IMG/VR virus record: IMGVR_UViG_3300044613_003659
Coordinates: 32,001-96,000 of that record
Reading direction: 5' to 3' (one strand)
Length of the DNA stretch: 64,000 nt
Source of the DNA: a virus
Both the position numbers and the translations under genes were made by a program. The notes beneath the pieces are model-generated. The model saw only the letters and a list, made by a program, of their open reading frames with translations, made no database searches and had not been told where the DNA came from. This document shows positions 868 to 24,771 of this stretch, piece by piece (position 1 is the first letter of the stretch; each line of letters starts with the position of its first letter).

Positions 868-891
868 AATCTACTCCTAAAATTAAAAGTT

Positions 892-965
892 TGGCTCCGG
901 TGGAGAGAATCGAACTCCCACTAACGGTTTTGGAGACCGCCGCACTGCCATTATACTACACCGGA
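892..965 (-). tRNA. tRNA-Trp(CCA)
   Basis: Loop CT-CCA-AA, TTCGA T-loop, CCA end. Confidence 0.93.
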
Positions 966-970
966 CAGGA

Positions 971-1228
971 TTACTCTGGATTTTTAACCATGTTGGAAAT
1001 CATTGTTTCTCTGCGCTCTTGAATCTCTTTGATTTTTTCTTCACTCTCTAGCTGGCCCAAATTGATTGAATAAATTACCCAGACCATCCAAACAAAAACC
1101 GAAAAGATAAACAAATTAAAAAGAGTTTCGGCATCCAATTGAAACAATGCTACGATTGCAATTGGTCCTAATGCTGCAACAGCTATCATGCCCACAGTAC
1201 GAAGAATTGCTCGAGTTCGAATATTCAT
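971..1228 (-). CDS. small membrane protein
   Basis: AGGAG SD, two TM segments; sigma70-like TTGACA...TAAAAT upstream. Confidence 0.65.
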   Translation of the reverse strand: MNIRTRAILRTVGMIAVAALGPIAIVALFQLDAETLFNLFIFSVFVWMVWVIYSINLGQLESEEKIKEIQERRETMISNMVKNPE

Positions 1229-1283
1229 TACTACTCCTAATTAACTAATGTACTTAACATTTTACTTGAAGTTCTAATAAATG

Positions 1284-1583
1284 TCAATTATATCCGCGAA
1301 CAATATCATCCTCATCGTAATAATGGAATTTGTCCTGTAAGAATCGTTTTTCTTGTATTGTTATTTCTTTGAACCATTTTCTAGGATTACCGCAAATAGA
1401 ACAATTAGAATCACCGCAGTTTAAAATATGTTTTTTATGATTGCGATGTGGTTGAGTTATATACTTCCATTTTGTGTTTTGGTGCATGAGATAATCTTTG
1501 GCTATCTTTATCTGTCTTTCGATCGCTGTATCGTCTCGATACCTACGAGTACTATTTTTAATTTTATCATTTTCGTTTGACAT
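1284..1583 (-). CDS. hypothetical protein with Cys cluster (CGDSNCSICGNPRK)
   Basis: Start moved to MSNEND (AGGAG SD) because the longer ORF overlaps tRNA-Ser. Confidence 0.65.
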   Translation of the reverse strand: MSNENDKIKNSTRRYRDDTAIERQIKIAKDYLMHQNTKWKYITQPHRNHKKHILNCGDSNCSICGNPRKWFKEITIQEKRFLQDKFHYYDEDDIVRGYN

Positions 1584-1601
1584 ACTTGCTCCTGTAAAAT
1601 C

Positions 1602-1692
1602 TGGCGGAAGCGGACGGAGTCGAACCCTCAAGGCGCCATTAACGCTCAACTGTTTTCAAGACAGGTACCATCACCAATTGGTTTGCGCTTCC
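1602..1692 (-). tRNA. tRNA-Ser(TGA)
   Basis: Loop CT-TGA-AA, long variable arm, CCA. Confidence 0.93.
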
Positions 1693-2330
1693 TTGTGACT
1701 ATTAAAACGACTTTCAATTATCTCTTTGAGTTTATGATAATAAGCCAATTGTCCGGCCGGGCCATCATGTCCATTCCACCCATATAAATCATAATCCCAT
1801 GGTTTTATTCCGCTGTATGTTTCATGAAAATTATATCTAGAATACTGATATAAGTTTAATATTCTAGGATTATCTTTGATGTAATCAAAAAACGGTTTCC
1901 GCGGTCCAAAAGGATCCCAATCAAATGCTTTTGAATTATTAATGATGTAATAATTTTTTTTGTATAAATCTAAGCAAGAAACAACACCGACGATTTGACT
2001 GTACGCTATTAGCTCTGCGGTTTCAAAATCAATTCTGCTGATAGCTTCTGGTGTTAATATCTCTTGAAATTTATCTGACTTACATTGCTCTAAATCTAGT
2101 CTGTTTAATGAAGTAAGATTTATTATATAAAAAGTATCAGAATCTAAATTTGATAACAAATGACGATACACTCGTTGGATAATTAAGTTGTTGCTAGAAC
2201 CATGGCCGGAATCATTTACGATAGTTTTTGCTCCCATATCTAATGCAAGATAATGCCAATACATTTGTTCATTGGTTATTATGCCGGGCTGCTCTGAAGT
2301 AAAACTACATCCAGAATTATAAAGTATCAT
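1671..2330 (-). CDS. SGNH/GDSL-like hypothetical protein
   Basis: N-terminal GCSFT, GSSN block, C-terminal NGHDG. Confidence 0.55.
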   Translation of the reverse strand: MILYNSGCSFTSEQPGIITNEQMYWHYLALDMGAKTIVNDSGHGSSNNLIIQRVYRHLLSNLDSDTFYIINLTSLNRLDLEQCKSDKFQEILTPEAISRIDFETAELIAYSQIVGVVSCLDLYKKNYYIINNSKAFDWDPFGPRKPFFDYIKDNPRILNLYQYSRYNFHETYSGIKPWDYDLYGWNGHDGPAGQLAYYHKLKEIIESRFNSHKEAQTNW

Positions 2331-2625
2331 ATGCAGTTACCTCTTTGTTACCTTTCCAGTACATTTATTATCAATTGCTAGTCAGACCAAGTTAAAATAA
2401 ACAATGTTCTATCCTGATCCCACTTGAATGCAACACCTATATTATAAAGTGCTTGACAATCATCATAGGCCCATCGAGCATATCTTGGGCCTACACATTC
2501 ACGTAACCACGATTCAATTGACAATAATCCTTCTATCCAGTCTAACTGAGCTGAATTGCTGATTGGCCACGGTATTTGGGCATGGTATCGGAAAGCATGA
2601 CTGTCCACTAACATGCAGATATTTA

Positions 2626-2703
2626 TGGAGCATCGGGCGTGATTCGAACACGCGGTTGTACAGTTTTGCAGACTGCTGCTTTGGACCACTCAGCCACCGA
2701 TGC
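2626..2703 (-). tRNA. tRNA-Cys(GCA)
   Basis: Loop CT-GCA-AA, U73, CCA. Confidence 0.92.
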
Positions 2704-2711
2704 ATCAAATT

Positions 2712-2786
2712 TGGTCCGGCGTAAGGGAATCGAACCCCTATTTAAAGATTAGAAGTCTTCTGTATTATCCATTATACGAACGCCAG
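2712..2786 (-). tRNA. tRNA-Arg(TCT)
   Basis: Loop CT-TCT-AA, CCA. Confidence 0.92.
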
Positions 2787-2793
2787 TAAAACT

Positions 2794-2870
2794 TGGTGGG
2801 CCGGGTGAGACTCGAACTCACTGTCCCCCGATTATGAGTCGGACGCTTATACCAATTAAGCTTCCGGCCC
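2794..2870 (-). tRNA. tRNA(CAT), probably Ile2 (lysidine type)
   Basis: Loop CT-CAT-AA; GGGCC acceptor start resembles bacterial Ile2. Ile versus Met identity is inferred. Confidence 0.8.
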
Positions 2871-2877
2871 TACAACT

Positions 2878-2962
2878 TGGTGCGACTGGCCGGAATCGAA
2901 CCGGCACGACTTTCGTCGGCAGATTTTAAGTCTGCTGTGTATACCTGTTTCACCACAGTCGC
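2878..2962 (-). tRNA. tRNA-Leu(TAA)
   Basis: Loop CT-TAA-AA, variable arm, CCA. Confidence 0.93.
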
Positions 2963-2970
2963 ATTTTAAA

Positions 2971-3049
2971 TGGTCCGGGAAGTGGGATTCGAACTCACGA
3001 TCTCCTGCTCCCAAAGCAGGCGCTTTAAGCCAGACTAAGCTACACCCGG
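2971..3049 (-). tRNA. tRNA-Pro(TGG)
   Basis: Loop TT-TGG-GA, CCA. Confidence 0.93.
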
Positions 3050-3057
3050 ATAATTTT

Positions 3058-3282
3058 TTATTCTTCCTCGCTTGAATTAAAATATGCTATTATTTTACTA
3101 CGAGCTTCTGCTTCTGTCAAGGCCGGAACAGTTACGGTAGCTGTTCCGTTTTTAATACTAATATCAAATGGTACACGACCATTAGGCATCCAATTTTCTT
3201 CTACAGGAACACTGATAGTAAACTCCTGTAAGTTCATTAATCTGTCAATTACGCTTTTTGTAAGATCGCTTGGACGTGGCAT
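3058..3282 (-). CDS. hypothetical protein
   Basis: AAGGA SD; fills the gap between two tRNAs. Confidence 0.6.
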   Translation of the reverse strand: MPRPSDLTKSVIDRLMNLQEFTISVPVEENWMPNGRVPFDISIKNGTATVTVPALTEAEARSKIIAYFNSSEEE

Positions 3283-3293
3283 AAAGTATCCTT

Positions 3294-3367
3294 TGGTGCC
3301 CCTTGACAGAATCGAACTGCCATCAGAGGATTACAAATCCACTGTATTACCATTATACTAAAAGGGC
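3294..3367 (-). tRNA. tRNA-Thr(TGT)
   Basis: Loop TT-TGT-AA, CCA. Confidence 0.92.
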
Positions 3368-3373
3368 CGAATT

Positions 3374-3468
3374 TGGCGGAGAGTGAGGGATTCGAACCCT
3401 CGATACAGGTTTTAGCCCGTATGTCTTCTTAGCAGGAAGGTGGTTTCAGCCAGCTCACCCAACTCTCC
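3374..3468 (-). tRNA. tRNA-Ser(GCT)
   Basis: Loop CT-GCT-AA, long variable arm, CCA. Confidence 0.93.
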
Positions 3469-3509
3469 AATAACATTATTATATAGTTGAGTAATAGTCC
3501 TGTCAACAA

Positions 3510-4112
3510 TTACATGATAGGACCATTACCGTTACGCATTTCAATTGTACCACCTTCTGCCTTGATTCTTTTAATCAAGTCTTCAAGCAAGATAGGTGCA
3601 AAGTCAGTTTGTTCTACACATACACAATGATAGCGAGGATCAATTCGTTCTCGAACACCCCATTCCATGAACTCCATCATAGAACTAGCTCTGCGCATCA
3701 CACGGTTGGCATGAAGGTGACCGTGTACATTTACACCGAAGCGACCCAGGCTTTCTTCATGTATAGGTATATGACTCAAGATCATGCCACTCATCACATG
3801 ATAGCCACGAATATCTCTAAAGTATTTGGTGTAGTCCTCTAGTTTAAAAATATCATGGTTACCACGGATTAACACTTTGTCGCCGTTGAGACGGCCGAGT
3901 GTGGTCAAATGTTTCCTATTAATAACTACATCACCTAGGTGATATACTTTGTCCTTAGGTCTAACACGCTCGTTCCAGGCTTGGACCATGAACTCGTCCA
4001 TTTCCTCAGGGTCATCCCATGGGCGCAGTTTGGTAATACCGTCATTGCGTAGGAATCTGCAGACGCCGGCGTGACCAAAATGCGTGTCACTTATTAAAAA
4101 AGTTGCCGGCAT
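3510..4112 (-). CDS. calcineurin-like metallophosphoesterase
   Basis: SDTHFGH, HLGD, GNHD and HGHLH motifs. Confidence 0.9.
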   Translation of the reverse strand: MPATFLISDTHFGHAGVCRFLRNDGITKLRPWDDPEEMDEFMVQAWNERVRPKDKVYHLGDVVINRKHLTTLGRLNGDKVLIRGNHDIFKLEDYTKYFRDIRGYHVMSGMILSHIPIHEESLGRFGVNVHGHLHANRVMRRASSMMEFMEWGVRERIDPRYHCVCVEQTDFAPILLEDLIKRIKAEGGTIEMRNGNGPIM

Positions 4113-4125
4113 CTTGTTCTCCTTG

Positions 4126-4431
4126 TTATGCTACTAGCCACTTGGTGTTGGCTTTTAATTCAATTGATTCCGCACCATCAAATTCGTCAATTCTAAACTC
4201 TGTGCCTTGATCTATCCATTCAACAGTTAAATCGTCTAATCCACCAAAATATTCGTTTGGATATTTCAATGTTAGGTAGTGTTCTATTTTGTCTAGTTCT
4301 TTGGCCTCAAGCCATAATACAATACTAGGGTCATAAAGCAGTTCCTCTATTTTGTGCCAAGAATACCAACCGGCACCGTAGTCAGGCGATACGAGAACTG
4401 CTACCTTTCCGTCACGGATTAACTTATTCAT
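4126..4431 (-). CDS. hypothetical phage protein
   Basis: ORF track; translationally coupled to the upstream ORF. Confidence 0.65.
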   Translation of the reverse strand: MNKLIRDGKVAVLVSPDYGAGWYSWHKIEELLYDPSIVLWLEAKELDKIEHYLTLKYPNEYFGGLDDLTVEWIDQGTEFRIDEFDGAESIELKANTKWLVA

Positions 4432-4602
4432 TACAATAACACATTACATGCCTCGTAAAACTTGGTAATATTAAATCTCGTATTAATTTTCATACATGCA
4501 GCGGCTACCGCTGTCGCTGCTTCTACTCTAGTGTTTCTATCTGCAATTTCACTAATATGTTTTGCTATCAACTCAAAGTCTTTTCTAGACATCGTCATCT
4601 CC

Positions 4603-4914
4603 TTAGGCCCAAACAAGTTCACGTGCTGGAAATTCAATCCGGCCATCAAACTCAAGTTGGTCACGCTCAAATTGGGTTAGATAGTCATCGGCTACAATAT
4701 TGAAATCAACAATGTGTTCACGGAAGTACGCACTGTCTTCTTCAATCTGACTACGCAAAGCCATAACAGCCTGGGTCACATCTTTGCCTCGAAAATTCTT
4801 GACCACATAGTCGTTGCCGCCTTTGGCTTTCCAATACTCAGGGCACTCGCCTTTGCCGTCCCAATCGTGGGCGCCGTAGTTTTCGTAAACTTGGGTAGTG
4901 ATTACTAGTTTCAT
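4603..4914 (-). CDS. hypothetical early phage protein
   Basis: AAGGAG SD directly below the early promoter at 4943-4971. Confidence 0.7.
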   Translation of the reverse strand: MKLVITTQVYENYGAHDWDGKGECPEYWKAKGGNDYVVKNFRGKDVTQAVMALRSQIEEDSAYFREHIVDFNIVADDYLTQFERDQLEFDGRIEFPARELVWA

Positions 4915-4942
4915 AACAGCTCCTTTGCTTTACTATACCTGT

Positions 4943-5022
4943 ATTATAGCAAAATGAGCCATTATGGTCTACCGTTTTGTTTTGTTGCAAGAATAGCAAC
5001 AAACGTTGCTAGAATAGTAACA
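4943..5022 (-). promoter_or_regulatory. early sigma70-type promoter with two upstream GTTGC-N7-GCAAC-type palindromes
   Basis: TAGACC-17 nt-TATAAT (4971-4943); palindromes at 4983-5001 and 5004-5022. Confidence 0.75.
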
Positions 5023-5028
5023 ATGTAG

Positions 5029-5102
5029 TGGAGCGGGGTAAGAGAATCGAACTCTCAGCATGAGCTTGGAAGGCTCAGGTATTACCATTATACGAACCCC
5101 GC
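5029..5102 (-). tRNA. tRNA-Gly(TCC)
   Basis: Loop CT-TCC-AA, CCA. Confidence 0.93.
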
Positions 5103-5110
5103 ATAAAATT

Positions 5111-5185
5111 TGGCGGTCGGTACGGGAGTCGAACCCGTGACTACGGCGTGACAGGCCATTATTATCACCGTTTAACTAACCGACC
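5111..5185 (-). tRNA. tRNA-Asp(GTC)
   Basis: Loop CT-GTC-AC, G73, CCA. Confidence 0.92.
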
Positions 5186-5191
5186 TACAAC

Positions 5192-5268
5192 TGGCTCCAG
5201 GAATAGGAATCGAACCTATCTGATGAACGGATTAACAGTCCGCTGCCCCACCTTGTGGCCGTCCTGGA
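5192..5268 (-). tRNA. tRNA-Asn(GTT)
   Basis: Loop CT-GTT-AA, CCA. Confidence 0.92.
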
Positions 5269-5275
5269 ATAAAAC

Positions 5276-5349
5276 TGGTGCCTCGTGATGGAATCGAACC
5301 ACCGTAACCACCGTGTAAGGATGGAGTTCTACCATTAAACTAACGAGGC
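5276..5349 (-). tRNA. tRNA-Val(TAC)
   Basis: Loop CT-TAC-AC, CCA. Confidence 0.92.
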
Positions 5350-5350
5350 T

Positions 5351-5647
5351 TTAAATATATCTATCAATGTTTAGTCCTACTGCACTAGCACGTTGAACTA
5401 ATCTTTGTTCTTTGATACTTTCGCCAAAGGCATAAAGTCTTAAAAATTCTGTTTGTTTGTCATAATCATAATTTCGCTGTAACCTTGTGGCTTCTTGAAT
5501 TGCCATCAAATGGGCTAATTCTCTCATTTCCTGCTGATCAATGTCCTTGCGTTTCATGTCCATAAGAACCTGCACTCGCTGACCAATCATTTGATAATCA
5601 TTCAAATAAGCATAAGGCACACGATATATAATCATAACTATTCCCAA
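5351..5647 (-). CDS. hypothetical protein
   Basis: ORF fills the gap between two tRNAs; start uncertain. Confidence 0.55.
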   Translation of the reverse strand: MGIVMIIYRVPYAYLNDYQMIGQRVQVLMDMKRKDIDQQEMRELAHLMAIQEATRLQRNYDYDKQTEFLRLYAFGESIKEQRLVQRASAVGLNIDRYI

Positions 5648-5649
5648 TT

Positions 5650-5734
5650 TGGTGGGGATGGAAGGAATCGAACCTACTCACCCGAAAGAACTGATTTACA
5701 GTCAGCCGCCACTCTCCAACTTAGCCGCATCCCC
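5650..5734 (-). tRNA. tRNA-Tyr(GTA)
   Basis: Loop CT-GTA-AA, variable arm, CCA. Confidence 0.93.
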
Positions 5735-5735
5735 T

Positions 5736-6380
5736 CTATTGCCAAAATTTAATTATTCTACCAGATATGTTAGAATTGAAAGTATTTAAATTTTCATAAA
5801 TTCTACTGATAGTTTTTGACAGTTTTTCACTGTTATCATATTCAAAATGTGTGGAAATAGAATAGACTATAACACCTTTATCATTATGTTTAGCTAGTGC
5901 AAACATTAAATGAGTTTGTGCCGCTTTACCTCCAGGATGACCTACTGAACTGGTAGCAAAATTTCTTGGCACAGCAAAGGCCAATCCACTGGTCATAAAA
6001 ACTATTTTACTATTTTTTTCCATTTTTGTCAGTGCAATAGTAGCAATGATATGTGGAATTATAGCTTGAATAGAAAGGGTAGCTATCCAAGAATTTGTTA
6101 TTCTAGTTATATCTGCTCCTGTGCAATAATCTTCTTCGCTACAAGGGCCGTAATCTGCATTAGAATTGTAAAGAAACAAGTCAATTTTATCAATGTTCTC
6201 TATTAGCTTTTTAAATTTATTCACTACATCATGAATGTCAAAAAAATTTGCGTATAAGTGGTTTGGATTATTTCCGTAATCTTTATGACTCAATATGTAA
6301 ACATTATTACCTTCATCTCGAAATTTATCTGCAATAATTTTTCCGAACTTTTGCCCGCCGCCAATAATAACCACATTCAT
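5736..6380 (-). CDS. short-chain dehydrogenase/reductase-like (Rossmann) protein
   Basis: VIIGGGQKFG dinucleotide-binding motif, IVFMTS; HxxxK in place of YxxxK. Confidence 0.7.
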   Translation of the reverse strand: MNVVIIGGGQKFGKIIADKFRDEGNNVYILSHKDYGNNPNHLYANFFDIHDVVNKFKKLIENIDKIDLFLYNSNADYGPCSEEDYCTGADITRITNSWIATLSIQAIIPHIIATIALTKMEKNSKIVFMTSGLAFAVPRNFATSSVGHPGGKAAQTHLMFALAKHNDKGVIVYSISTHFEYDNSEKLSKTISRIYENLNTFNSNISGRIIKFWQ

Positions 6381-6398
6381 AGTAGATTCCTGATATAA

Positions 6399-6474
6399 TG
6401 GTGGAGGTGACAGGACTTGAACCCGCTACCTTGACCTTGCAAAGGTCCTGCTCTCCCAGGTGAGCTACACCCCC
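6399..6474 (-). tRNA. tRNA-Ala(TGC)
   Basis: Loop TT-TGC-AA, G3:U70, CCA. Confidence 0.93.
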
Positions 6475-6476
6475 AA

Positions 6477-6725
6477 TTATTCTTTTACGTCTTTTGCATC
6501 AACGCACGTTTCGCCTCTAAACACGTATACATCAGAGTCTACTCGCAGTTGTTCAAATACTTGATTGTTTACACAAATATATGGATCTTTGTGATTTTCC
6601 ATATAAAAGAAAATGCCATATCCAATACCCGCTAATACCATCAATACAGGTACATATTTTAAATATTTTACAATTTCGGGCATAGCACCCAAAATTTGCG
6701 GTAAGTTCTTGAGCAATTCTTTCAT
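6477..6725 (-). CDS. small membrane protein
   Basis: One TM segment; ATAAATA late-type box just upstream of the ATG. Confidence 0.55.
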   Translation of the reverse strand: MKELLKNLPQILGAMPEIVKYLKYVPVLMVLAGIGYGIFFYMENHKDPYICVNNQVFEQLRVDSDVYVFRGETCVDAKDVKE

Positions 6726-6738
6726 GCTCGTATTTATG

Positions 6739-6814
6739 TGGCACACCCAACCGGATTCGAACCGGTGTAACCACCGTGAAAGGGTGGTGTCCTAGGCCAC
6801 TAGACGATGGGTGC
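6739..6814 (-). tRNA. tRNA-Glu(TTC)
   Basis: Loop CT-TTC-AC, CCA. Confidence 0.93.
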
Positions 6815-6816
6815 AT

Positions 6817-6978
6817 CTATTTTTCAACTCTACATTCAGCATTCATTTTACTATTCACTGCTCTTAATCTTGCATTCCAAGTTTTTGCTGATTCTAAGCA
6901 CTTAAGTTCGTTAGGAAACTTTTCGTAGATAGTAAAGTTTTCAGGAAATTGTATCCAAAACACTAACACCCAAGTCAT
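6817..6978 (-). CDS. 53-aa protein with hydrophobic N-terminus and two Cys (not in ORF track)
   Basis: AGGAG SD; MTWVLVFWIQFPENF...KFPNELKC...ECRVEK. Confidence 0.6.
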   Translation of the reverse strand: MTWVLVFWIQFPENFTIYEKFPNELKCLESAKTWNARLRAVNSKMNAECRVEK

Positions 6979-7043
6979 TGCAATCTCCTGTTATGACACT
7001 TAGACCACTGGTACTTGTTAGGTAATCCAATAACCAAAAAATT

Positions 7044-7469
7044 TCATTTATCTGTTATAATTTTTTTACAGTCTAGTAACCAAAGGGCAGCATCGTCTTT
7101 ATCAATAATTAACTTTGCAACGCCATTTCTAGACCAGTAATAACTAAAAATTTTTGTATGTTGATCTGTTTCAAAATAAAACGACTCTTCCGGTAATTGC
7201 CAGGATTCTATAAAAAATCCATCTATTTCTAAACTATCAATGCGAATAAATTTATCAGCTACAATTTCACCATTACTGGTGATTGTGTCATTATCTTTCC
7301 TGTTACCTAAATGAAACTCAATAGTTGTAGGTAATGCAATATCAACATTGACGCAAAATATATCTTTCGTCTCTATTTGTTTAATTTGATTGCCAAATTT
7401 AAGTTCAAGAAACATATATTCATCAGATACCTGTCCTGCTGAAAAATTAAATTTAAAACTAGCAATCAT
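7044..7469 (-). CDS. hypothetical protein
   Basis: ORF track; coupled to the upstream ORF. Confidence 0.6.
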   Translation of the reverse strand: MIASFKFNFSAGQVSDEYMFLELKFGNQIKQIETKDIFCVNVDIALPTTIEFHLGNRKDNDTITSNGEIVADKFIRIDSLEIDGFFIESWQLPEESFYFETDQHTKIFSYYWSRNGVAKLIIDKDDAALWLLDCKKIITDK

Positions 7470-8116
7470 AAAAAGTTATTTGCAGCCAAAAAACTCTTGA
7501 CTTCTGACACCGGACTCAACCATCTCATTTGAAATACTTCTCTAAAGCCAGCATTTATAACTCCGTGATCAACTGAAGCATCAATTAAGTTTATTGTACC
7601 AGGTATTGATTGATAAGTTTCTTTATGACCTGTTACTTTATCTATGGCATAACTATATGCTTTTGGATCTGTAGAAGTTATGATTAAATTCAAGTTACAA
7701 ATTTTTTTTGATTCATTTTGAAATGGTTGTGCATTCCAAGTATATTCAGGAATTCCGTCATAATGTTTTATTAATTCTCCATAATGTTCAAAAAAACTAA
7801 ATCCTACAAAATTTAACTTTGCTTCTTTACTTTTTGTAGCAAAATTTTTTAACTCTTGAGGTAAAATATATTCTAAAAAAAGCCCTGACCAAACATAAAA
7901 ATCACAAGCGGAAACATATTTTTTTGATTTATCTACAGTCATTGAACCGTACTTACCTATGCTTCCTCTATAGGCTTGATAACCTGGTTCAAATTCTAAC
8001 TTCAATTCGTTGTTATCAATCTTTTCACGTATTCTATAATATATTTTTCTAATTCTGTCAGAATCAATTTTGATTTTTAAATTTTTTACTGGACAGCAGA
8101 GTAGATTTTTGGACAT
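7466..8116 (-). CDS. 2OG-Fe(II) oxygenase-like protein
   Basis: HxD (KHYD) ... H (DHGV) ... R pattern. Confidence 0.5.
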   Translation of the reverse strand: MSKNLLCCPVKNLKIKIDSDRIRKIYYRIREKIDNNELKLEFEPGYQAYRGSIGKYGSMTVDKSKKYVSACDFYVWSGLFLEYILPQELKNFATKSKEAKLNFVGFSFFEHYGELIKHYDGIPEYTWNAQPFQNESKKICNLNLIITSTDPKAYSYAIDKVTGHKETYQSIPGTINLIDASVDHGVINAGFREVFQMRWLSPVSEVKSFLAANNFL

Positions 8117-8173
8117 AAAATTCTTTCGTCTATTAAATATTTAATAGACTAATTTCTCAACACAAATATATTT

Positions 8174-8367
8174 TGGATGTAATTGCTTAGGCCACGCTTT
8201 TCCACGGTCGCCCCCAAGCTGAGTTGTTACCCTGTCCGAACACTAAAGGACTTTGCCGCGTAGTGTTCACGCTGCTATGTCGTCTGAGTTGCCCCGCTAA
8301 AGGTGCCATAGCCACCTGGATTTTCTCGTGCACCACACGCCACTTTCAGGAAAGTGGTAACCGGAAA
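8174..8367 (-). ncRNA. unclassified ~195-nt structured RNA
   Basis: GC-rich non-coding island with stems CCACTTT/AAAGTGG, GCTATG/CATAGC, GAACACTA/TAGTGTTC and GCTTGGG/CCTAAGC. Confidence 0.65.
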
Positions 8368-8452
8368 CCATATTGAAACACACTCATCTCGCACCGTCAT
8401 ATAGGCGATCAACTCTATACGCTTATAGGCATCAAAATGTGCTTCAATATGG
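8368..8452 (-). ncRNA. long-stem RNA element E1, starting at the CCA of tRNA-Leu
   Basis: 16-bp closing stem CCATATTGAAGCACAT/GTGTGTTTCAATATGG, fully paired on the minus strand (two G:U). Confidence 0.6.
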
Positions 8453-8530
8453 TGCCCCAGGAGGGACTCGAACCCTCACCCGAAGACTGGCTTCTAAGAC
8501 CAGCGTGTCTACCAGTTCCACCACCGGGGC
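8450..8530 (-). tRNA. tRNA-Leu(TAG)
   Basis: Loop CT-TAG-AA, CCA. Confidence 0.93.
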
Positions 8531-8629
8531 ATTTACTGCTTGATTGTTAATGAACGTTTACTGCACTATTTCATTATTATATAAAACTAGTGATTAATTG
8601 TCAACCTAAAGTGTCTTATAAATATTGCA

Positions 8630-9691
8630 ATGAATAAAGTGTTTACAATCAAGCCAAATTTATTTCCAAAGAAAAACTTTAAAGATTTGTACTGCCCGGA
8701 TCCATTTGAAACAGTTCAAATTGATCAAGCAGGTAATGTTCGTTTATGTGGATGCGAAAACTGGCATCCTCAGCAAATAGGAAACATATTTCAACAATCA
8801 TTAGTAGAAATTTTTAATAGTAAATTAGCCAATCAAATTAGACAAAGTATACGTGATGGTTCCTATATATATTGCAACGAACAAACGTGTGGAAGCATAA
8901 TTAATCAAACATTAATTCCGTTAAATAAACTTGACCCAGAGCTTCAAAAAAAATTTACTACCTGCGATTACTTTGAAATGCCTTATACTTTTTATATTGC
9001 CGGCGATGATACTTGTAATCTAAGTTGCCCAAGTTGTCGCACAAGAGTAATTGATAAAAATGAATATAACCTCACGCAAAATTCTGCAGCATTAAATATT
9101 TTAAATGAACAAATTTTCAATGGATCAAGCGATAAAAATATTACTATAAAATTAAGCACATCCGGCGAAGTGTTTGCCAGTACTTTGTTAATGGAATTTG
9201 TTTCAAAATTCAACATTCAAAACTATCCTAAAGCAGAATTTTGGTTTCAAAGTAATGGACTTTTGATCAGCAGTAGATGGAACAGAATAGCGCATATCGC
9301 CGATCACATACAAAATTTCACTATTACAGCAGACAGTTGTACCAAAGCCACTTACGAAAAACTTCGAAGAGGTGGTAAGTTTGAAAAATTGCTTGATAAC
9401 TTAAATTTTTTGAAAATTAAAAAACATCAGCATCATTTTCATTTTATGTTACGTATAGTAGTGCAATATGACAACTATAGCGAACTAGAACAGTTTTATA
9501 ATTTTGCCAAATCGTATGATGTTGATTTAGTTGAATATGTTAGAATCACCAATTGGAACACATATTCTCAAGAACAGTTTTCTAGTATCGATGTCCTTGA
9601 TGCCAGACATCCATTATACGATACTGTTTCTAGTAAATTAAAAGTACTGCACCAGCGACCCGATGTAAAAATTTATGGAGCAACTTTGTAA
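8630..9691 (+). CDS. radical SAM protein with N-terminal SPASM/twitch-like Cys domain
   Basis: CNLSCPSC; N-terminal CPDPF...LCGC...IGNI; TATAAATA just upstream of the ATG. Confidence 0.85.
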   Translation: MNKVFTIKPNLFPKKNFKDLYCPDPFETVQIDQAGNVRLCGCENWHPQQIGNIFQQSLVEIFNSKLANQIRQSIRDGSYIYCNEQTCGSIINQTLIPLNKLDPELQKKFTTCDYFEMPYTFYIAGDDTCNLSCPSCRTRVIDKNEYNLTQNSAALNILNEQIFNGSSDKNITIKLSTSGEVFASTLLMEFVSKFNIQNYPKAEFWFQSNGLLISSRWNRIAHIADHIQNFTITADSCTKATYEKLRRGGKFEKLLDNLNFLKIKKHQHHFHFMLRIVVQYDNYSELEQFYNFAKSYDVDLVEYVRITNWNTYSQEQFSSIDVLDARHPLYDTVSSKLKVLHQRPDVKIYGATL

Positions 9692-9693
9692 AA

Positions 9694-9769
9694 TGGCAGT
9701 AGAGATCGGATTCGAACCGATGATAGCCACCGTATGAAGATGGTGCATTAGCCACTATGCTACTCTACT
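9694..9769 (-). tRNA. tRNA-Met(CAT), elongator-type
   Basis: Loop TT-CAT-AC, paired 1:72, CCA. Confidence 0.85.
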
Positions 9770-9999
9770 TTGGATTTTACTAATTTGATTATTTTTTCAA
9801 TTGTGATAGCATCAGCAGCTTCGTCGGCTTGGATAGCTATCTTGAACACTCGTTCAATATCCATGGTGATCTCTACGGTGTCAAGCGAGTCGGCACCAAG
9901 ATCAGCAACAATGGCATGCGCCATTGATAACTCTGCTGGATCTACTCCAAACTGATTGGCAATTATTTCAAATATTTTTGATTCTATGTCAGTCAACAT
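9760..9999 (-). CDS. acpP: acyl carrier protein
   Basis: DLGADSLDTVE phosphopantetheine motif, 79 aa, acidic. Confidence 0.9.
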   Translation of the reverse strand: MLTDIESKIFEIIANQFGVDPAELSMAHAIVADLGADSLDTVEITMDIERVFKIAIQADEAADAITIEKIIKLVKSKVE

Positions 10000-10714
10000 A
10001 TTGATACACTAGCCTACTTTGGTTGATTGAATTCATACTAACTACTTCGTTTTCAGTGGTGCCTCTGCGTATGTAAATACCCTCATGTATGAAGCTGTTA
10101 CGTTTAAAAACTGCACCTGGTTTTAGAGCTTTTACAGCCACTCCAAAAAATACATCCGGCTCCACAACGTTGTTGCCGGTCAAAATGCATTGTCTTTGAA
10201 ACACGCAATTTTTACCTACCACATTGTCATGCCCTATTAGCGTATTATAGTATATGCTAACAAAATCGCCAATCTTTGATTTTACCTCTATCATTACATG
10301 TGCATCCAAAAATACTCCGCGCCCAATTTCTGCATACTTGAGCATTCGTGCATCCCTATCAACCAAACTGATACAGTTTAGACTGTTGGATTCAATCAAG
10401 TCAATCAAACGATTTCGCTTTTGTCTGTTGCGTACAGCAACAGGAGATTGTTCCGGTATCCAATTGGTAGCACAGAAAAAATTATAGTTGTTTCTGTAGT
10501 GCGCCAATTTTGCAGTGTCATTGATAAATGATTCTGAATCAATGACAGGAATCTCACACAGTTGATCACAGTTACCGTAGTAATCAGAATCAATTATGCC
10601 AGCAACTGTAATGCCGTGGTCTTCGCAAATGCCGGCCAACTTGTACATTATGCTGTTTGATCCCAGAAATATCAAAGGCCGAGTGGCGTCATTGATGTGC
10701 GAGATATGCGTCAT
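9989..10714 (-). CDS. hexapeptide-repeat (LbH) acyltransferase, NeuD/PglD-like
   Basis: IGRGVF, IGDFVS and IGHDNVVG repeats after a Rossmann-like N-domain; start trimmed to MTHISH. Confidence 0.75.
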   Translation of the reverse strand: MTHISHINDATRPLIFLGSNSIMYKLAGICEDHGITVAGIIDSDYYGNCDQLCEIPVIDSESFINDTAKLAHYRNNYNFFCATNWIPEQSPVAVRNRQKRNRLIDLIESNSLNCISLVDRDARMLKYAEIGRGVFLDAHVMIEVKSKIGDFVSIYYNTLIGHDNVVGKNCVFQRQCILTGNNVVEPDVFFGVAVKALKPGAVFKRNSFIHEGIYIRRGTTENEVVSMNSINQSRLVYQYVD

Positions 10715-11750
10715 GTTGCTCTTCTTCAAATATCCTACGACGTTCTTGATCAACAAGACTTGCAAATTGATCATGTGTGATTGTTTCACCTTTGAATCTC
10801 AATGTGTTCATTGGCGCTGCATGTTCATACAACTTGTCCCAATAGGTAATTACTCTTGCCATGGTTCTACGGTCACCATCTTTGACATTGGTAGGGCGTT
10901 TGTGCAACGTGATCTCTTGGTCCATGAATACAATTTGCCCATCTTGCCAATGCTGGCTGTAAACCCAACGATTGTTATATACTATTCTTTTTAACTCATC
11001 AAATAGTCTCACACTTTCATCCATACTCATTCCCACAAATCCATCAAAACTGTGTGCAGGAAATTTAATACCCGGTAATCCTGTGACTGACTCGGCATAC
11101 AATCTAGTTTCTGTACCGTCCAGTGGTGCTTGATTGTAGCGTATGACCAAGCTGGGAGTTGGTTCTAGGTCTGGCGCCATACGTCCTTCTACCCAACGGT
11201 GTTTGCAATATAATTCTTTGACTGTGCTTTGCATATCGGCACTCATTGAGTCAAATGCATCATGGGTGCATAAAAATTGTGTACAACTGTTGGCAGTATC
11301 ACTTACGCTTTGCAGACCAATCACTCTTGGACTGTCATCGTATGCACATTGATCACTGTGCCAGTCTAGTTCACCATTTGGAAACAATCCCTTGGGACGA
11401 TTCTTTTCGTCTTTTTTGTATGTGACAGCAGAAACTGCAGAAATCATTTGTTTGTCTACATTTCTGATGTCTTTGGTTGTATATCCTAGGTGTAAATAAA
11501 TTTCTCTCCAATGCCGCCCATTCAAGCGTTCACTTACAATATAATCGTGTATAAGTGCGCGGCTGGGCCTGCCCCACTGAGTCTGTATTTCAAACAGTCT
11601 TTGTGTACTGATCTTTTGATCCACTAGAACAATACACTGGCTAGCAACTAGGCGCCCAAATTCAAGTATTTCCTCATCGGAGTTCAAATCAATATCATAC
11701 ACTTCTACACCTACACTGGCGCTATAATTCTTTAACGCACGAATTTTCAT
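10689..11750 (-). CDS. TauD/TfdA-family 2OG-Fe(II) dioxygenase
   Basis: GVEVYDIDL, WHSD, TQF, HWQDGQIVFMD...LHKR, R..R. Confidence 0.88.
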   Translation of the reverse strand: MKIRALKNYSASVGVEVYDIDLNSDEEILEFGRLVASQCIVLVDQKISTQRLFEIQTQWGRPSRALIHDYIVSERLNGRHWREIYLHLGYTTKDIRNVDKQMISAVSAVTYKKDEKNRPKGLFPNGELDWHSDQCAYDDSPRVIGLQSVSDTANSCTQFLCTHDAFDSMSADMQSTVKELYCKHRWVEGRMAPDLEPTPSLVIRYNQAPLDGTETRLYAESVTGLPGIKFPAHSFDGFVGMSMDESVRLFDELKRIVYNNRWVYSQHWQDGQIVFMDQEITLHKRPTNVKDGDRRTMARVITYWDKLYEHAAPMNTLRFKGETITHDQFASLVDQERRRIFEEEQHDAYLAHQ

Positions 11751-11927
11751 AACATTATCCTCTTAAAATTTTTTTTGTAGGCTAGCAGCAATCTGCATAC
11801 GGACGGCGTTCTACATGTAACACAGTAGTAAAAGGGTCGTACCCTAAGCGTCATAGTGATACCGACGTCAACTGTTGTTGGCGTTGCAAAATTATTTATA
11901 ATTAATTGTGTGTAATAAAAAAATACT

Positions 11928-12004
11928 TGGTACCCACTCCTGGAATCGAACCAGGGACCCCAACCTTATCAAGATTGTGCTCTAACCGACTGAGCTAAGT
12001 GGGC
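11928..12004 (-). tRNA. tRNA-Ile(GAT)
   Basis: Loop TT-GAT-AA, CCA. Confidence 0.93.
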
Positions 12005-12005
12005 A

Positions 12006-12080
12006 TGGCCGGTCCGGACAGATTCGAACTGCCGACAGCTGGTTTCGAAGACCAGAACTCTTCCGCTGAGCTACGGACCG
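12006..12080 (-). tRNA. tRNA-Arg(TCG)
   Basis: Loop CT-TCG-AA, CCA. Confidence 0.92.
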
Positions 12081-12110
12081 TTAAATAAAAGTATGCTTGG
12101 TAAATTAATA

Positions 12111-12187
12111 TGTTGGGTCTGGATGGATTTGAACCAACTACCTCCGTGTTGTTTGCACGGTGCTCTACCAGATTGAGCTACAGACCT
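12111..12187 (-). tRNA. aberrant tRNA-like gene, anticodon AAC (Val-like), no CCA
   Basis: Canonical D-arm TAGCTCAATCTGGTAGAGC, stem CCGTG/CACGG, loop CA-AAC-AA, T-loop TTCAAAT, ends ACA. Confidence 0.65.
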
Positions 12188-12264
12188 CCCCGGTCCGGGA
12201 ACTAATTCTCCTGCAACCGGTACAATATTTATAGGACAACAATTTACATAGTTCGAGAACTTAT

Positions 12265-12966
12265 ATGACATTACACATCATTGGACACAGTATGACAATC
12301 GGGCATCATTGTCATGAATCACAGTCAAATCGAAATTTACCTACAACATTCAGTGACATGTTGATAGAAAAATATCGTGATCAATTTGATGTTCAAGTGC
12401 ATTCCTACAGACAATGTTCTGAAGAACGAATTTTACAGATTGTAAGAACAATAAAGTCGCCCATCGATAAAGTGATTATTTTCCATTCCCACCCGTCATT
12501 TGTTTATTTTCCTAGTTTTGATCGAGACATTGGATGCATAGATGATATAGAATATATACAAAGTTTAGATATTGTATGTTACTATAATTACTGTAAACCC
12601 GGAAAACCATTTGACCCTAACGATAAGCTTTCTAGACCCATATCCGGCTCTGAGTTCGTGCAGATATATAAAACAGTTATGAACTACACGGTGTCAGCTG
12701 ATGTTTCACAAAAACGTTTCAATGGAGCAATACTACAAATTGATCAACTGCTAACAGTTAGAAAAATTCCTGTGATACATTGTCCAATGGCCAAAACATT
12801 ACCAGTCTGGTTTAATTTTTCTTCTGGCATTACAGATAACGAGTTGAGTATCATCGACTCGGGTAAACATAATATAGGGTACCAAAGATCTTTAAACGCT
12901 ATTGATAATGAAGGGAATACAATTATCTTTAATAAATTATCAGAATATATTGACAATTTAACTTAA
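12265..12966 (+). CDS. hypothetical protein (SGNH-like N-terminus)
   Basis: IIGHSMT; 233-aa ORF antisense to the tRNA array. Confidence 0.6.
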   Translation: MTLHIIGHSMTIGHHCHESQSNRNLPTTFSDMLIEKYRDQFDVQVHSYRQCSEERILQIVRTIKSPIDKVIIFHSHPSFVYFPSFDRDIGCIDDIEYIQSLDIVCYYNYCKPGKPFDPNDKLSRPISGSEFVQIYKTVMNYTVSADVSQKRFNGAILQIDQLLTVRKIPVIHCPMAKTLPVWFNFSSGITDNELSIIDSGKHNIGYQRSLNAIDNEGNTIIFNKLSEYIDNLT

Positions 12967-13042
12967 TGGTGCCGGCTCCTGGTTACGCTCCAGGCCATTA
13001 TGCTCTTCAGGCATACGCTTCCACTAGGTTAGCTTAGACGGC
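12967..13042 (-). tRNA. tRNA-Phe(GAA), atypical T-loop
   Basis: Loop CT-GAA-GA; T-loop AGCGTAA; CCA. Confidence 0.85.
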
Positions 13043-13043
13043 A

Positions 13044-13119
13044 TGGGGTGTCCGACCGGTATCGATCCGGTACTACCAGTTTCACAGACTAGTGTGCAGG
13101 CCACTACACTACGGACACC
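13044..13119 (-). tRNA. tRNA-His(GTG)
   Basis: Loop CT-GTG-AA, G-1:C73, CCA. Confidence 0.92.
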
Positions 13120-13121
13120 AC

Positions 13122-13196
13122 TGGTAGGGGATGAGGGATTCGAACCCCCGCATGGCGGAATCAAAATCCGCTGTCTTACCGCTTGACGAATCCCCA
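13122..13196 (-). tRNA. tRNA-Gln(TTG)
   Basis: Loop TT-TTG-AT, U1:A72, CCA. Confidence 0.92.
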
Positions 13197-13197
13197 A

Positions 13198-13347
13198 TTA
13201 ACTTGGTATGACTTTTGGAATGTAAGGAACATTCCTGGGCCCGTGACGTTGTTCAAACAACATTCTTGCTTCTTGCAAATCTTTTGCGTACACACGATCT
13301 TTTTGATCACCTTGCGGTGTTCTTACTGTAGTTTCATACATTGGCAT
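13198..13347 (-). CDS. small hypothetical protein (MPMYETTVRTP...)
   Basis: AAGGAG SD; start trimmed. Confidence 0.6.
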   Translation of the reverse strand: MPMYETTVRTPQGDQKDRVYAKDLQEARMLFEQRHGPRNVPYIPKVIPS

Positions 13348-13362
13348 TACCGTCTCCTTGTA

Positions 13363-13459
13363 CCATATAGAAACACACTGTGGGATTCGAACCCTCACTC
13401 TCGGCATCAGAGAGCATTACCACCCGTCGTGCCCTTCGGCTCAATGTGTTTTTATATGG
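13363..13459 (-). ncRNA. long-stem tRNA-like element E2, starting at the CCA of tRNA-Lys
   Basis: 18-bp closing stem (one mismatch) around a D-like TGGTAA arm, a CTCTC/GAGAG arm with 7-nt loop and a GGGTTCGAATCCC T-arm. Confidence 0.7.
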
Positions 13460-13533
13460 TGGGTGCGGTGAGATTCGAACTCACGACTCTCTGATTAAAA
13501 GTCAGATACTCTAACCAACTGAGTTACGCACCC
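13457..13533 (-). tRNA. tRNA-Lys(TTT)
   Basis: Loop CT-TTT-AA, CCA. Confidence 0.93.
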
Positions 13534-13882: not shown

Positions 13883-13977
13883 TGGTAGTAGGCCAGGGAT
13901 TCGAACCCTGTCGTTCCAGCCCATCTAGCCAGTCTCCACGGTTTATAAGTCCGCGCCGCATACCAATGCTGCCTACC
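13883..13977 (-). tRNA. unusual tRNA with anticodon TAT (Ile-like), long variable region, short D-arm
   Basis: Acceptor GGTAGGC/GCCTACT-ACCA, loop CT-TAT-AA, T-arm CAGGG-TTCGAAT-CCCTG. Confidence 0.8.
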
Positions 13978-13984
13978 ATTTCAG

Positions 13985-14054
13985 CACACTCTGGTTGTCC
14001 AAAAGACCTCCTTCTCATCGTCACGGGACAAGAACGATATTCGTCCAAAGTGTA
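13985..14054 (-). ncRNA. long-stem RNA element E3
   Basis: Closing stem TACACTTTGG/CCAGAGTGTG (G:U pairs favour the minus strand); shares AGTGTG with E1 and E2. Confidence 0.5.
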
Positions 14055-14150
14055 TGATTGAGCAGACTAGTGGCTACGGTGATAGCACGACTGCTGTCCA
14101 AGCAGCTGGGATTACAAGGCCCCCGATACTCTTCTAATCTGTTCAATCAT
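14054..14150 (-). ncRNA. long-stem cloverleaf-like RNA element E4
   Basis: 17-bp closing stem ATGATTGAACAGATTAG/CTAGTCTGCTCAATCAT enclosing three short hairpins. Confidence 0.6.
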
Positions 14151-14245
14151 TCCCGTTTTACTAAGCCGTTACCGCCGGCAGGTTCATCAAGGGCTCCGCC
14201 CGTTTAGCAATTTATAGTGCTGCTGCGGCCTCGTTCCGCTTACAC
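14151..14245 (-). ncRNA. GC-rich structured RNA candidate E5
   Basis: Non-coding; hairpins AGCA/TGCT, GGGC/GCCC, GCCG/CGGC and possible GCCGC/GCGGT pairing. Confidence 0.45.
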
Positions 14246-14249
14246 TTTG

Positions 14250-14417
14250 TTATCTATGTCGCTTAGTTAGACGACGTAATTCTTCATTTGTTTCCAATTG
14301 CTCACGCAATCTTTTCATTTTACCTTTAACTAATTGTTCAAGTAACTTATCGTTAAAAACAAAATTACGTTCTTCTAACTTTTTTTGAAACGACAGTATA
14401 TCTTGTTCGTTCGTCAT
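14250..14417 (-). CDS. 55-aa basic coiled-coil protein, first gene after the attenuator (not in ORF track)
   Basis: AAGGAAG SD; MTNEQDILSFQKKLEERN...RRLTKRHR. Confidence 0.55.
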   Translation of the reverse strand: MTNEQDILSFQKKLEERNFVFNDKLLEQLVKGKMKRLREQLETNEELRRLTKRHR

Positions 14418-14429
14418 CGCTTCCTTTAT

Positions 14430-14466
14430 AAAACAAAAACCCCAGGGTTTTGAGTCCTGGGGTTTT
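14430..14466 (-). terminator. intrinsic terminator of the leader attenuator
   Basis: AAAACCCCAGG-ACTCAAAAC-CCTGGGGTTTT continuing TGTTTT. Confidence 0.9.
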
Positions 14467-14508
14467 ATAGAATTTAATTACAACCTTAGATTCTATGATC
14501 CCCCCAGG
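14456..14508 (-). promoter_or_regulatory. antiterminator hairpin overlapping leader codons 33-39 and the terminator 5' arm
   Basis: CCTGGGG (14508-14502) pairs with CCCCAGG (14462-14456); ATAGAATCTAA pairs with TTAAATTCTAT (10 of 11). Confidence 0.8.
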
Positions 14509-14605
14509 CACGATTACTATCACCGCGTGTAATCATAACCCAATAGGCTATTAGCCCAAATTCGGGTTGTGATTTAAATGAGCAATGTAATTGTACTTGG
14601 TTCAT
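14486..14605 (-). CDS. 39-aa attenuator leader peptide MNQVQLHCSFKSQPEFGLIAYWVMITRGDSNRAWGDHRI (not in ORF track)
   Basis: Manual translation; all 20 amino acids by codon 29; lies between promoter and terminator. Confidence 0.8.
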   Translation of the reverse strand: MNQVQLHCSFKSQPEFGLIAYWVMITRGDSNRAWGDHRI

Positions 14606-14615
14606 AATAGTTTCT

Positions 14616-14644
14616 ATACTACATTTATTTATCTTTGTAGTCAA
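14616..14644 (-). promoter_or_regulatory. promoter of the leader and tRNA array
   Basis: TTGACT-17 nt-TAGTAT, with a late-type ATAAATA in the spacer; -10 box ends 10 nt before the ATG; no SD. Confidence 0.7.
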
Positions 14645-14654: not shown

Positions 14655-14683
14655 TAAAAAAGCCCGATAGTTGGGCTTTTTTA
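14655..14683. terminator. bidirectional intrinsic terminator after pqqA
   Basis: AAAAAAGCCCGA-TAG-TTGGGCTTTTTT. Confidence 0.85.
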
Positions 14684-14705: not shown

Positions 14706-14780
14706 TTAACGATTTGCAATATACATAGTGATTTCAAAACCAAAACGCATATCATTTGCTTGTGGTGTAGTCCATGCCAT
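14706..14780 (-). CDS. pqqA: pyrroloquinoline quinone precursor peptide (not in ORF track)
   Basis: MAWTTPQANDMRFGFEITMYIANR, with the W..P...D.R.GFExxxY signature; AAGGAG SD. Confidence 0.93.
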   Translation of the reverse strand: MAWTTPQANDMRFGFEITMYIANR

Positions 14781-23995: not shown

Positions 23996-24051
23996 ACGAT
24001 TTTTCCTATTATACAGTTATATTTATAAAAATAGGCACCTAAGTGCCTATT

Positions 24052-24366
<315 letters not shown>

Positions 24367-24771
24367 ATACGTTTACTTACGTAAAAACCAAATCATATCT
24401 AAATATTTTTGAAGATGTTTTTCTTGAACGGATTTAGCCCAACTTGGTTGTGGTAAATTCCACCCAATAAATGCACCTACCATAATCCAAAAAATTGTTT
24501 CTAACATTGTACGCTCCTTTGTTTTTTTACATTAGAAAACCATACAAAGCACACCATAATTCAAGAAGAACATAATATCCAGCATATGCTAGTATGCATA
24601 CCACTATTAAATCAACCACTGACCGAATATCATTTATTTTCATCGTCTTTGTTTTCTTTGATCCATTCATAATAGATTAAGCCTAATGCAACGGATATAC
24701 TACCAACTAGTAAAACTCCGAGCAAAAAGCCTACAATAAAATACAAACGGTTTACTTCATCCACCTAATAT

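Follow-up and report, generated by a model that had tools for sequence, protein, structure and literature searches.

Why phages carry arrays of transfer RNA (tRNA) genes, and how such arrays are regulated, is an active question, and the locus described here raises it in a concrete form: what is a short open reading frame (ORF) that spells out every amino acid doing between a promoter and a terminator, ahead of phage tRNA genes? The locus lies in a stretch of 64,000 nucleotides (nt), hereafter the window, that comprises bases 32001 to 96000 of the 107.6-kb IMG/VR virus record IMGVR_UViG_3300044613_003659. Because this record is only 29% complete by estimate, a giant phage is implied; related contigs reach 340 to 364 kb. 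The element occupies positions 14430 to 14644 on the minus strand. From its sequence and that of its relatives, we think it is probably a ribosome-mediated transcription attenuator with a leader that works as a checklist of amino acids, heading the tRNA region of the phage. That the physiological signal is the loss of individual tRNAs appears plausible, with some support from the choice of codon boxes in the leaders.

The element in the window has the following parts.

14644-14639 (TTGACT) and 14621-14616 (TAGTAT), minus strand: sigma-70-type promoter TTGACT-17-TAGTAT, from sequence reading and a consensus scan (9/12 matches).
14605 (ATG) to 14488-14486 (TAA), minus strand: leader ORF of 39 sense codons plus TAA, from sequence reading.
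14504-14600, minus strand: long hairpin within the ORF body, present in the minimum-free-energy fold.
14502-14508, minus strand: CCUGGGG box (codons 33 to 35), the 5' arm of the antiterminator, complementary to the terminator 5' arm.
14467-14496, minus strand: inner hairpin of the antiterminator, enclosing the stop codon, from folding.
14430-14466, minus strand: intrinsic terminator made of AAAACCCCAGG, a 9-nt loop, CCUGGGGUUUU and a U-tract, from sequence and folding (-17.0 kcal/mol).

A reading of this DNA made from the sequence alone had described the promoter, a 39-codon ORF without a Shine-Dalgarno sequence, the terminator and the hairpins, and all of them are present at the minus-strand coordinates listed above. 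Promoter, ORF, box, inner hairpin and terminator are consecutive and gap-free. Ten nucleotides separate the TAGTAT hexamer from the ATG, which no Shine-Dalgarno sequence precedes, and the CCUGGGG box (14508-14502), which lies 14 to 20 nt upstream of the stop codon, is able to pair with CCCCAGG (14462-14456) across the inner hairpin. The RNA of the whole element has a minimum free energy of -58.7 kcal/mol (z = -4.4), and the hairpin predicted in the ORF body is a possible pause hairpin. An Rfam search with cmscan at E values up to 1 over positions 1-30000 gave no match inside 14430-14644, T-box included, and the leader peptide has no Pfam match.

The hallmarks of transcription attenuation can be recognized in this arrangement. 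The promoter is followed at once by a short ORF in the 5' leader; a GC-rich terminator separates this ORF from the regulated genes, with no promoter between; and the antiterminator, which excludes the terminator, has its 5' arm in the 3'-terminal part of the ORF, so placed that a terminating ribosome could mask it. The correspondence between regulatory codons and regulated tRNAs is present in an altered form, in that codons of 24/24 decoding classes occur, with Phe as the exception.

Translation of the leader confirms the claim of the sequence-only reading that all 20 amino acids (20/20) are present by codon 29. Full sets of this kind are found in 4.3e-4 of stop-free 29-codon segments and in 4.1e-3 of 39-codon segments. 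Among ATG-initiated ORFs of 30 to 50 codons in the window, 2/175 contain all 20 amino acids (the leader and one other), and because comparable ORFs do so, the amino acid count of this leader alone fails the look-elsewhere effect. Scored by the decoding classes of the record's tRNAs and compared with all stop-free 39-codon segments of the 107.6-kb record, coverage is extreme, with 2/45,410 segments covering 24 classes, possibly the leader's own segments. The leader covers 22 classes by codon 29, 23 by codon 30 and 24/24 in total; the AGA at codon 38 does complete the set, as had been proposed, but the set numbers 24 classes, 23 of them reached by codon 30. The window by itself makes a partial case against chance for the codon content of the leader.

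The search for relatives led from neighboring proteins to three close homologues and from the ORF of 55 amino acids (aa) that follows the terminator to eleven loci. In all eleven the element is directly upstream of this ORF, with promoter, (ATG)ATG, open frame, box and a near-invariant terminator. The 20-base terminator pattern has exact matches in at least 120 IMG/VR phage contigs, and related phages carry the leader element in at least 80 sequence variants; in a scan of prokaryote genomes the pattern had 2 matches, both ordinary unrelated terminators without a leader-like ORF or tRNAs. For statistics we defined the family by the terminator pattern plus a tRNA within 2 kb, with no amino acid criterion, which gave 82 unique elements, and we used two divergence sets, of 33 clusters with <60% peptide identity and 23 clusters with <45%. 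Among fetched loci with at least 3 kb of downstream sequence, 46/52 have same-strand tRNAs within 3 kb downstream (median, 448 nt; up to 41 downstream tRNAs in one locus), while in 46/61 loci the 3 kb upstream of the element contain no tRNA on its strand. This places the element at the start of tRNA arrays.

Completeness of the amino acid set is a property of the family. In the last 40 codons before the stop, 41/81 elements contain all 20 amino acids and another 31 contain 19, compared with 22/7,819 (0.28%) of the other open frames in the same loci. All 20 are held by 21/33 clusters with <60% identity, for which a column-shuffle null predicts 2.3 complete clusters (maximum of 8 in 2,000 runs) and a pooled-composition null predicts 0.8; the excess over the nulls is also seen for the 23 clusters with <45% identity. 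High amino acid diversity with poor peptide conservation, which the sequence-only reading had suggested looking for in relatives, is what these clusters display. Rare residues such as Cys, Glu and Lys occupy differing codon positions between lineages, relocated rather than lost: Cys is encoded by codon 8 in the window, codon 16 in locus L008, codons 14 and 37 in L090 and codon 33 in L094, and Glu has moved from codon 15 to codon 36 in L087.

The reading frame itself is conserved. Frame 0 stays free of stop codons over 40 codons or more in 33/33 divergent representatives, compared with 3/33 and 1/33 for the other two frames, so that the short in-frame ORF before the terminator that was anticipated in related phages is indeed there. 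Insertions and deletions between homologues are of 3 and 9 nt and preserve the frame, and substitutions have no third-position bias: variable columns number 7, 12 and 8 for the first, second and third codon positions. Conservation of the frame, frame-preserving insertions and deletions, and statistics that depend on the frame argue for translation of the leader. From completeness, the open frame and the missing third-position bias, we conclude that selection has probably favored translation and a complete set of amino acids rather than any one peptide.

Several families of codons are divided between two boxes, and the leaders tend to use both. For Ser, Ile (ATA versus ATY), Arg and Leu, both boxes are present in 3.12/4 cases, versus 2.53 by random box choice, and 0/2,000 runs reached the observed value; considered alone, Arg (p = 0.0035) and Ile (p = 0.0065) have an excess. 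This pattern points to tRNA species, rather than amino acids, as the items sampled. A small hint in the same direction comes from locus L117, where Glu and Tyr are missing both from the leader and from the 20 downstream tRNAs retrieved. The position at which the checklist is completed is informative as well. It is complete before the box in 26/32 representatives (null, 7.2), usually just 1 to 4 codons ahead; completion at least 4 codons before the box was found in 3/32, which is not significant against a null of 2.0.

A Lys/Ile swap at codons 8 and 11 was considered as the product of a mini-hairpin, a cause ruled out by L006, which breaks both pairs. A SecM-like arrest motif in the main clade (FxxxxW, with Pro 11 residues later) was also dropped, as it is missing in the subfamily of the window and its conserved residues are fixed-codon.

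The two RNA states proposed for the element both fold. In the window, the antiterminator (box and arm plus inner hairpin) has a free energy of -19.8 kcal/mol, versus -17.0 for the terminator. A (CC.)GGGG(UCC) box, 8 to 28 nt before the stop codon, pairs with the terminator 5' arm in the local folds of all representatives examined, and this pairing spans middle and inner stems that differ in sequence and still fold. A MAFFT alignment of the antiterminator could align the middle stem alone, and per-sequence z-scores were used instead: antiterminator segments have a mean z of -4.1 relative to dinucleotide shuffles, with 32/33 below -2, far beyond shuffled sequence, and for the ORF bodies of family members the mean z is -2.1. 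The covarying stems that the sequence-only reading had proposed to look for were found in the form of inner stems that differ between members and compensatory changes in the middle stem, the latter detected by RNAalifold. The terminator sequence is strongly conserved because three segments of the element are mutually complementary. In most members the terminator and antiterminator states are near-isoenergetic, which fits a switch decided kinetically and by ribosome position.

We simulated masking by a ribosome with a 28-nt footprint. With the ribosome absent, the terminator state of the window is favored by 6.1 to 6.2 kcal/mol because the ORF hairpin competes for the box; in the predicted fold this hairpin acts as a protector that base pairs with part of the box region. 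When the ribosome is placed at codons 1 to 29 the two states are about equal, with a mean difference of about 0 to 0.6 kcal/mol. Once at codon 30 or beyond, the ribosome masks the box, just after the last item of the checklist at codon 29.

The genes that such a switch could control, and other features of the tRNA region, are as follows.

14426-14420, minus strand: strong Shine-Dalgarno sequence AAGGAAG of the 55-aa gene.
14250-14417, minus strand: gene for a 55-aa two-helix protein, the first gene after the terminator.
14040-14240, minus strand: conserved non-coding block of about 200 nt, from alignment and blastn (78 to 86% identity in several relatives).
13883-13977, minus strand: first tRNA-like gene of the region; its anticodon loop contains UAU and its variable arm is long (tRNA-Sec-like match of 31.7 bits).
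13044-13533, minus strand: proximal tRNA genes Lys(ttt), Gln(ttg) and His(gtg).
8576-8604, 3478-3506, 3092-3120 and 1259-1287, minus strand: sigma-70 consensus promoters (12/12 or 11/12) directly before distal tRNA blocks.
1602-1692, minus strand: tRNA-Ser(tga), found by the relaxed tRNA search only.

After the terminator, the order of genes is thus 55-aa ORF, non-coding block, UAU-type tRNA, Lys, Gln and His. The sequence-only reading had placed non-coding RNA and the tRNA array directly after the terminator; the actual first gene is the 55-aa ORF (14417-14250), which starts 20 nt past the terminator and must be reached by read-through because no promoter fits between the two. An ORF of at least 25 codons (mostly about 50 to 60) starts <80 nt, usually about 20 nt, past the terminator in 55/82 members. 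The 55-aa protein family has the motif LTxEQxxKLIxxKxERA, with invariant Lys and Arg, and the AlphaFold2 model has a mean predicted local distance difference test score of 87.6. Searches with this protein against Pfam, PHROGs and PDB sequences returned nothing informative (scattered single-member matches or matches with E >0.5), and Foldseek found no match in the PDB or the ESM Atlas. The block at 14040-14240 has no Rfam match and may be a new non-coding RNA.

ARAGORN identified 24 tRNA genes in the record, every one on the minus strand, at window positions 519 to 13533, and relaxed settings add two tRNA-like genes that the default settings missed. The L002 homologue of the gene with the UAU anticodon (13883-13977) is called tRNA-Ile(tat). 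No tRNA-Phe was found in the 107.6-kb record by default and relaxed searches. The tRNAs that most plausibly depend on read-through are Lys(ttt), Gln(ttg) and His(gtg). Between the distal promoters (8604, 3506, 3120 and 1287) and their tRNAs there is no leader ORF, and judged by these promoter sequences at least the tRNA blocks near 8530 and 3468 look independently transcribed.

In the mechanism that we propose, transcription would start a few bases before the ATG and yield a nearly leaderless messenger RNA. A ribosome would then translate the 39-codon leader, and its progress at the time that RNA polymerase meets the terminator would set the outcome. If translation is fast, the ribosome at the stop codon would cover or melt the CCUGGGG box and the inner hairpin; with the box masked, the terminator would form and transcription would end at about 14430. 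If translation is slow and the ribosome is held within roughly the first 29 codons, the box would be free when the CCCCAGG arm emerges, the antiterminator would form first, and the polymerase would continue into the 55-aa gene, the non-coding block and the proximal tRNAs (UAU-type, Lys, Gln and His). Selection would keep every amino acid in the leader, preferentially with both codon boxes of split families, and with every amino acid kept, a shortage of any tRNA or aminoacyl-tRNA could therefore trigger read-through. The signal could be tRNA loss, for example through host anticodon nucleases, or any other slowdown of translation. What the sequences show directly is the anatomy, its conservation, the checklist statistics and the location ahead of tRNA arrays; we infer that the leader is translated, that the two structures compete kinetically and what the signal is.

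Several observations weigh against this interpretation or narrow it. The leader of the window lacks a Shine-Dalgarno sequence, and its start relies on a putative transcription start 3 to 4 nt upstream. It has two Phe codons in a record without detectable tRNA-Phe, and for Phe the assumed match of leader codons to downstream tRNAs fails. In most relatives, the only codons for 1 or 2 amino acids, often Glu, lie about 4 codons or fewer from the box, and these amino acids are probably not sensed, since a ribosome stalled there should mask the box. Conserved residues keep identical codons, so that part of the conservation of the ORF lies at the RNA level, and the invariance of the terminator is partly a selection effect in a family that was gathered by its terminator pattern. 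The antiterminator is not favored at equilibrium in the window, even with a stalled ribosome, and the switch must therefore be kinetic; most relatives have no protector pairing, so an untranslated leader would also read through. We found no RNA sequencing runs that contain the element sequence; four runs of unstated type, from one study, contain about 30% of the sampled words.

Other points of this kind concern the regulated genes. The first of them encodes a conserved 55-aa protein and not a tRNA, plus-strand ORFs (12265-12966 and 8630-9691) interrupt the tRNA region, and consensus promoters at 8604, 3506, 3120 and 1287 lie directly before the distal tRNA blocks. Owing to the distal promoters and the plus-strand interruptions, the attenuator can be required for the proximal genes only. 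The sequence-only reading had itself cautioned that internal sigma70-like promoters might express distal tRNAs, and such promoters were found at 8604, 3506 and 1287 and also at 3120. Its idea of a replacement tRNA set expressed on demand is supported as far as the attenuator goes but was too broad, as only the proximal tRNAs need read-through.

Could the element work as an attenuator without reading the checklist? A general translation-coupling sensor would report ribosome supply, global inhibition or host shut-off, and amino acid completeness would have no role in sensing. The near-isoenergetic states and the missing protector in most members would fit such a sensor, since any lag or absence of the ribosome would read through, and it would also accommodate the one or two amino acids that often lie outside the zone in which a stall can be sensed. 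It leaves unexplained why completeness goes far beyond the composition and column-shuffle nulls, why dual codon boxes are favored and why rare residues are relocated instead of lost, and we consider it unlikely.

The checklist attenuator also has to be compared with an ordinary small-protein gene, in which the 39- to 47-aa peptide would be the functional product and the terminator a normal, somewhat leaky one. The ORF is conserved in all members, and peptides of the main clade have a recognizable core in common, marked by an invariant Trp and an SNDRTPE-like stretch, as might be expected of a protein. The pattern of change speaks against it: the substitutions (7, 12, 8) have no third-position bias and the conserved residues are fixed-codon, while peptides with <45% identity across 23 clusters still keep all 20 residues. 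A small-protein gene also gives no account of the ORF 3' end being complementary to the terminator arm in all representatives examined, of a downstream gene with no promoter of its own, or of an ORF that in the window has neither a Shine-Dalgarno sequence nor a Pfam match. We regard this explanation as very improbable.

Least credible is a small structured RNA, bounded by a promoter and a terminator of its own, in which the open frame would be incidental. It would fit the strong fold (z = -4.4 for the window element and a mean of -2.1 for ORF bodies), the nucleotide-level conservation and the bounded unit, but a constraint on RNA only cannot explain a frame open in 33/33 representatives with frame-preserving insertions and deletions, frame-dependent amino acid completeness is left unexplained, and Rfam has no match.

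If the checklist attenuator is accepted, its biological purpose can be considered. Some host defenses are known to cleave tRNAs, and infection can be rescued by tRNAs of the phage. We tentatively speculate, as a possibility rather than an expectation, that giant freshwater phages use the element as a surveillance switch on the tRNA pool, with loss of any tRNA, for example to a host anticodon nuclease, releasing a conserved small effector protein and replacement tRNAs. If this were true, the element would be a counter-defense circuit that senses the damage itself.

The attenuators of enterobacteria are the obvious models for comparison. The leader peptides of trpL, hisL, pheL and leuL, and of the multivalent thrL and ilvL, contain runs of one to three regulatory codons. 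As in trpL-type attenuators, the phage element has a short leader ORF, a terminator and an exclusive antiterminator with its 5' arm in the closing part of the ORF; termination would be favored once a ribosome has reached the stop codon, and the window also has a protector hairpin similar to the 1:2 hairpin. Whereas trpL-type elements control biosynthesis of the amino acids that they sense, the phage leader has about one codon of every kind and precedes tRNA genes. It also differs in being nearly leaderless in the subfamily of the window and in having no consistent protector in most relatives. T-box riboswitches bind uncharged tRNA directly, with no need for translation. Like the phage element, they couple transcription antitermination to tRNA status, but the conserved open frame of the phage element points to a ribosome-dependent mechanism.

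The closest working analogue is the whiB7 (wblC) attenuator of mycobacteria and other actinobacteria, which has a promoter-proximal upstream open reading frame (uORF) and an antiterminator/terminator pair, and in which stalling in the uORF leads to read-through, making it a broad sensor of translation stress. The Mycobacterium smegmatis whiB7 uORF contains 19/20 amino acids, 18/20 amino acid pathways scored in a screen, and experiments showed that the amino acid content of the uORF dictates which starvations induce read-through (PMC10274678). Unlike the phage element, whiB7 controls a bacterial transcription factor, its uORF is enriched in alanine (Ala makes up 5.5% of pooled phage leader residues), and there is no sequence relationship. 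The output of the phage element is a small, unrelated helical protein plus tRNA genes, and completeness of the set, codon boxes included, has been selected across >30 divergent clusters. The phage element works like whiB7 but is no member of the whiB7/wblC family.

For the output, the nearest comparison is the trn operon of Anabaena sp. PCC 7120, a long tRNA array induced by translational stress (PMC8421152). Like the phage arrays, it is an accessory, horizontally mobile array that is off until translation is impaired. It differs in being a cellular system and in being controlled by a protein repressor, TrcR (PMC10272220). The paper on the operon has no mention of an attenuator, leader or terminator (PMC8421152).

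In the literature, we found neither a leader-peptide attenuator on phage tRNA genes nor a regulatory logic that links tRNA damage to phage tRNA expression. The element, of about 180 nt, is a concrete, mutable and widespread candidate for the regulation of tRNA arrays. If the checklist is sensed as we propose, deletion of single codons should blind the switch to single tRNAs, and the element would be a compact sensor for shortage of any tRNA, a useful part for synthetic biology. Selection on the completeness of a set of amino acids and codon boxes is an unusual evolutionary signature, and it could be used to find similar sensors.

No cultured relative of this uncultured phage was found. When the element of the window and a main-clade element were compared by blastn with 50,697 phage records, nothing matched, and no match came from tblastn with a main-clade homologue of the 55-aa protein against cultured phages; the nearest phage record, reached through a DnaE-like protein, is an uncultured 484-kb phage (37% identity). 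As a separate observation on the arrays, the first tRNA after the attenuator is Tyr, Asn or Asp in 39/82 unique elements (loci L096-L213, uncorrected for shared ancestry), and these species account for about 13% of the downstream tRNAs overall in the family. The Tyr, Asn and Asp tRNAs form the queuosine family and are known targets of colicin E5-type nucleases.

The promoter is conserved along with the element. Homology to related loci starts exactly at the -35 hexamer of the leader promoter; relatives have TTGACA-17-TACAAT, and the promoter ends 6 to 10 nt before the ATG in 30/82 members, with the remaining members having a short purine-rich leader. The spacer (14622-14638 in the window, minus strand) has a TAAATAAA motif that is conserved across very divergent members and of which the window has a single full copy. 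Such conservation points to a promoter class specific to phages or to a site bound by a factor.

Three further features lie upstream of the element or elsewhere in the window.

14706-14780, minus strand: PqqA-like stand-alone ORF of 24 aa with its own Shine-Dalgarno sequence (Pfam PqqA, E = 2e-10), the gene immediately before the leader promoter.
14655-14681, minus strand: intrinsic terminator of the PqqA-like gene, a hairpin AGCCC..GGGCU followed by a T-run.
24026-24415, minus strand: permuted (two-piece) transfer-messenger RNA (tmRNA) of betaproteobacterial type, with the tag peptide ANAANDEVFALAA.

The terminator of the PqqA-like gene (14655-14681) insulates the leader promoter from upstream transcription. 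One of the plus-strand ORFs in the tRNA region (8630-9691) encodes a radical-SAM/SPASM protein, which could be the partner enzyme of the PqqA-like 24-aa ORF. The betaproteobacterial type of the permuted tmRNA may be a hint at the host.

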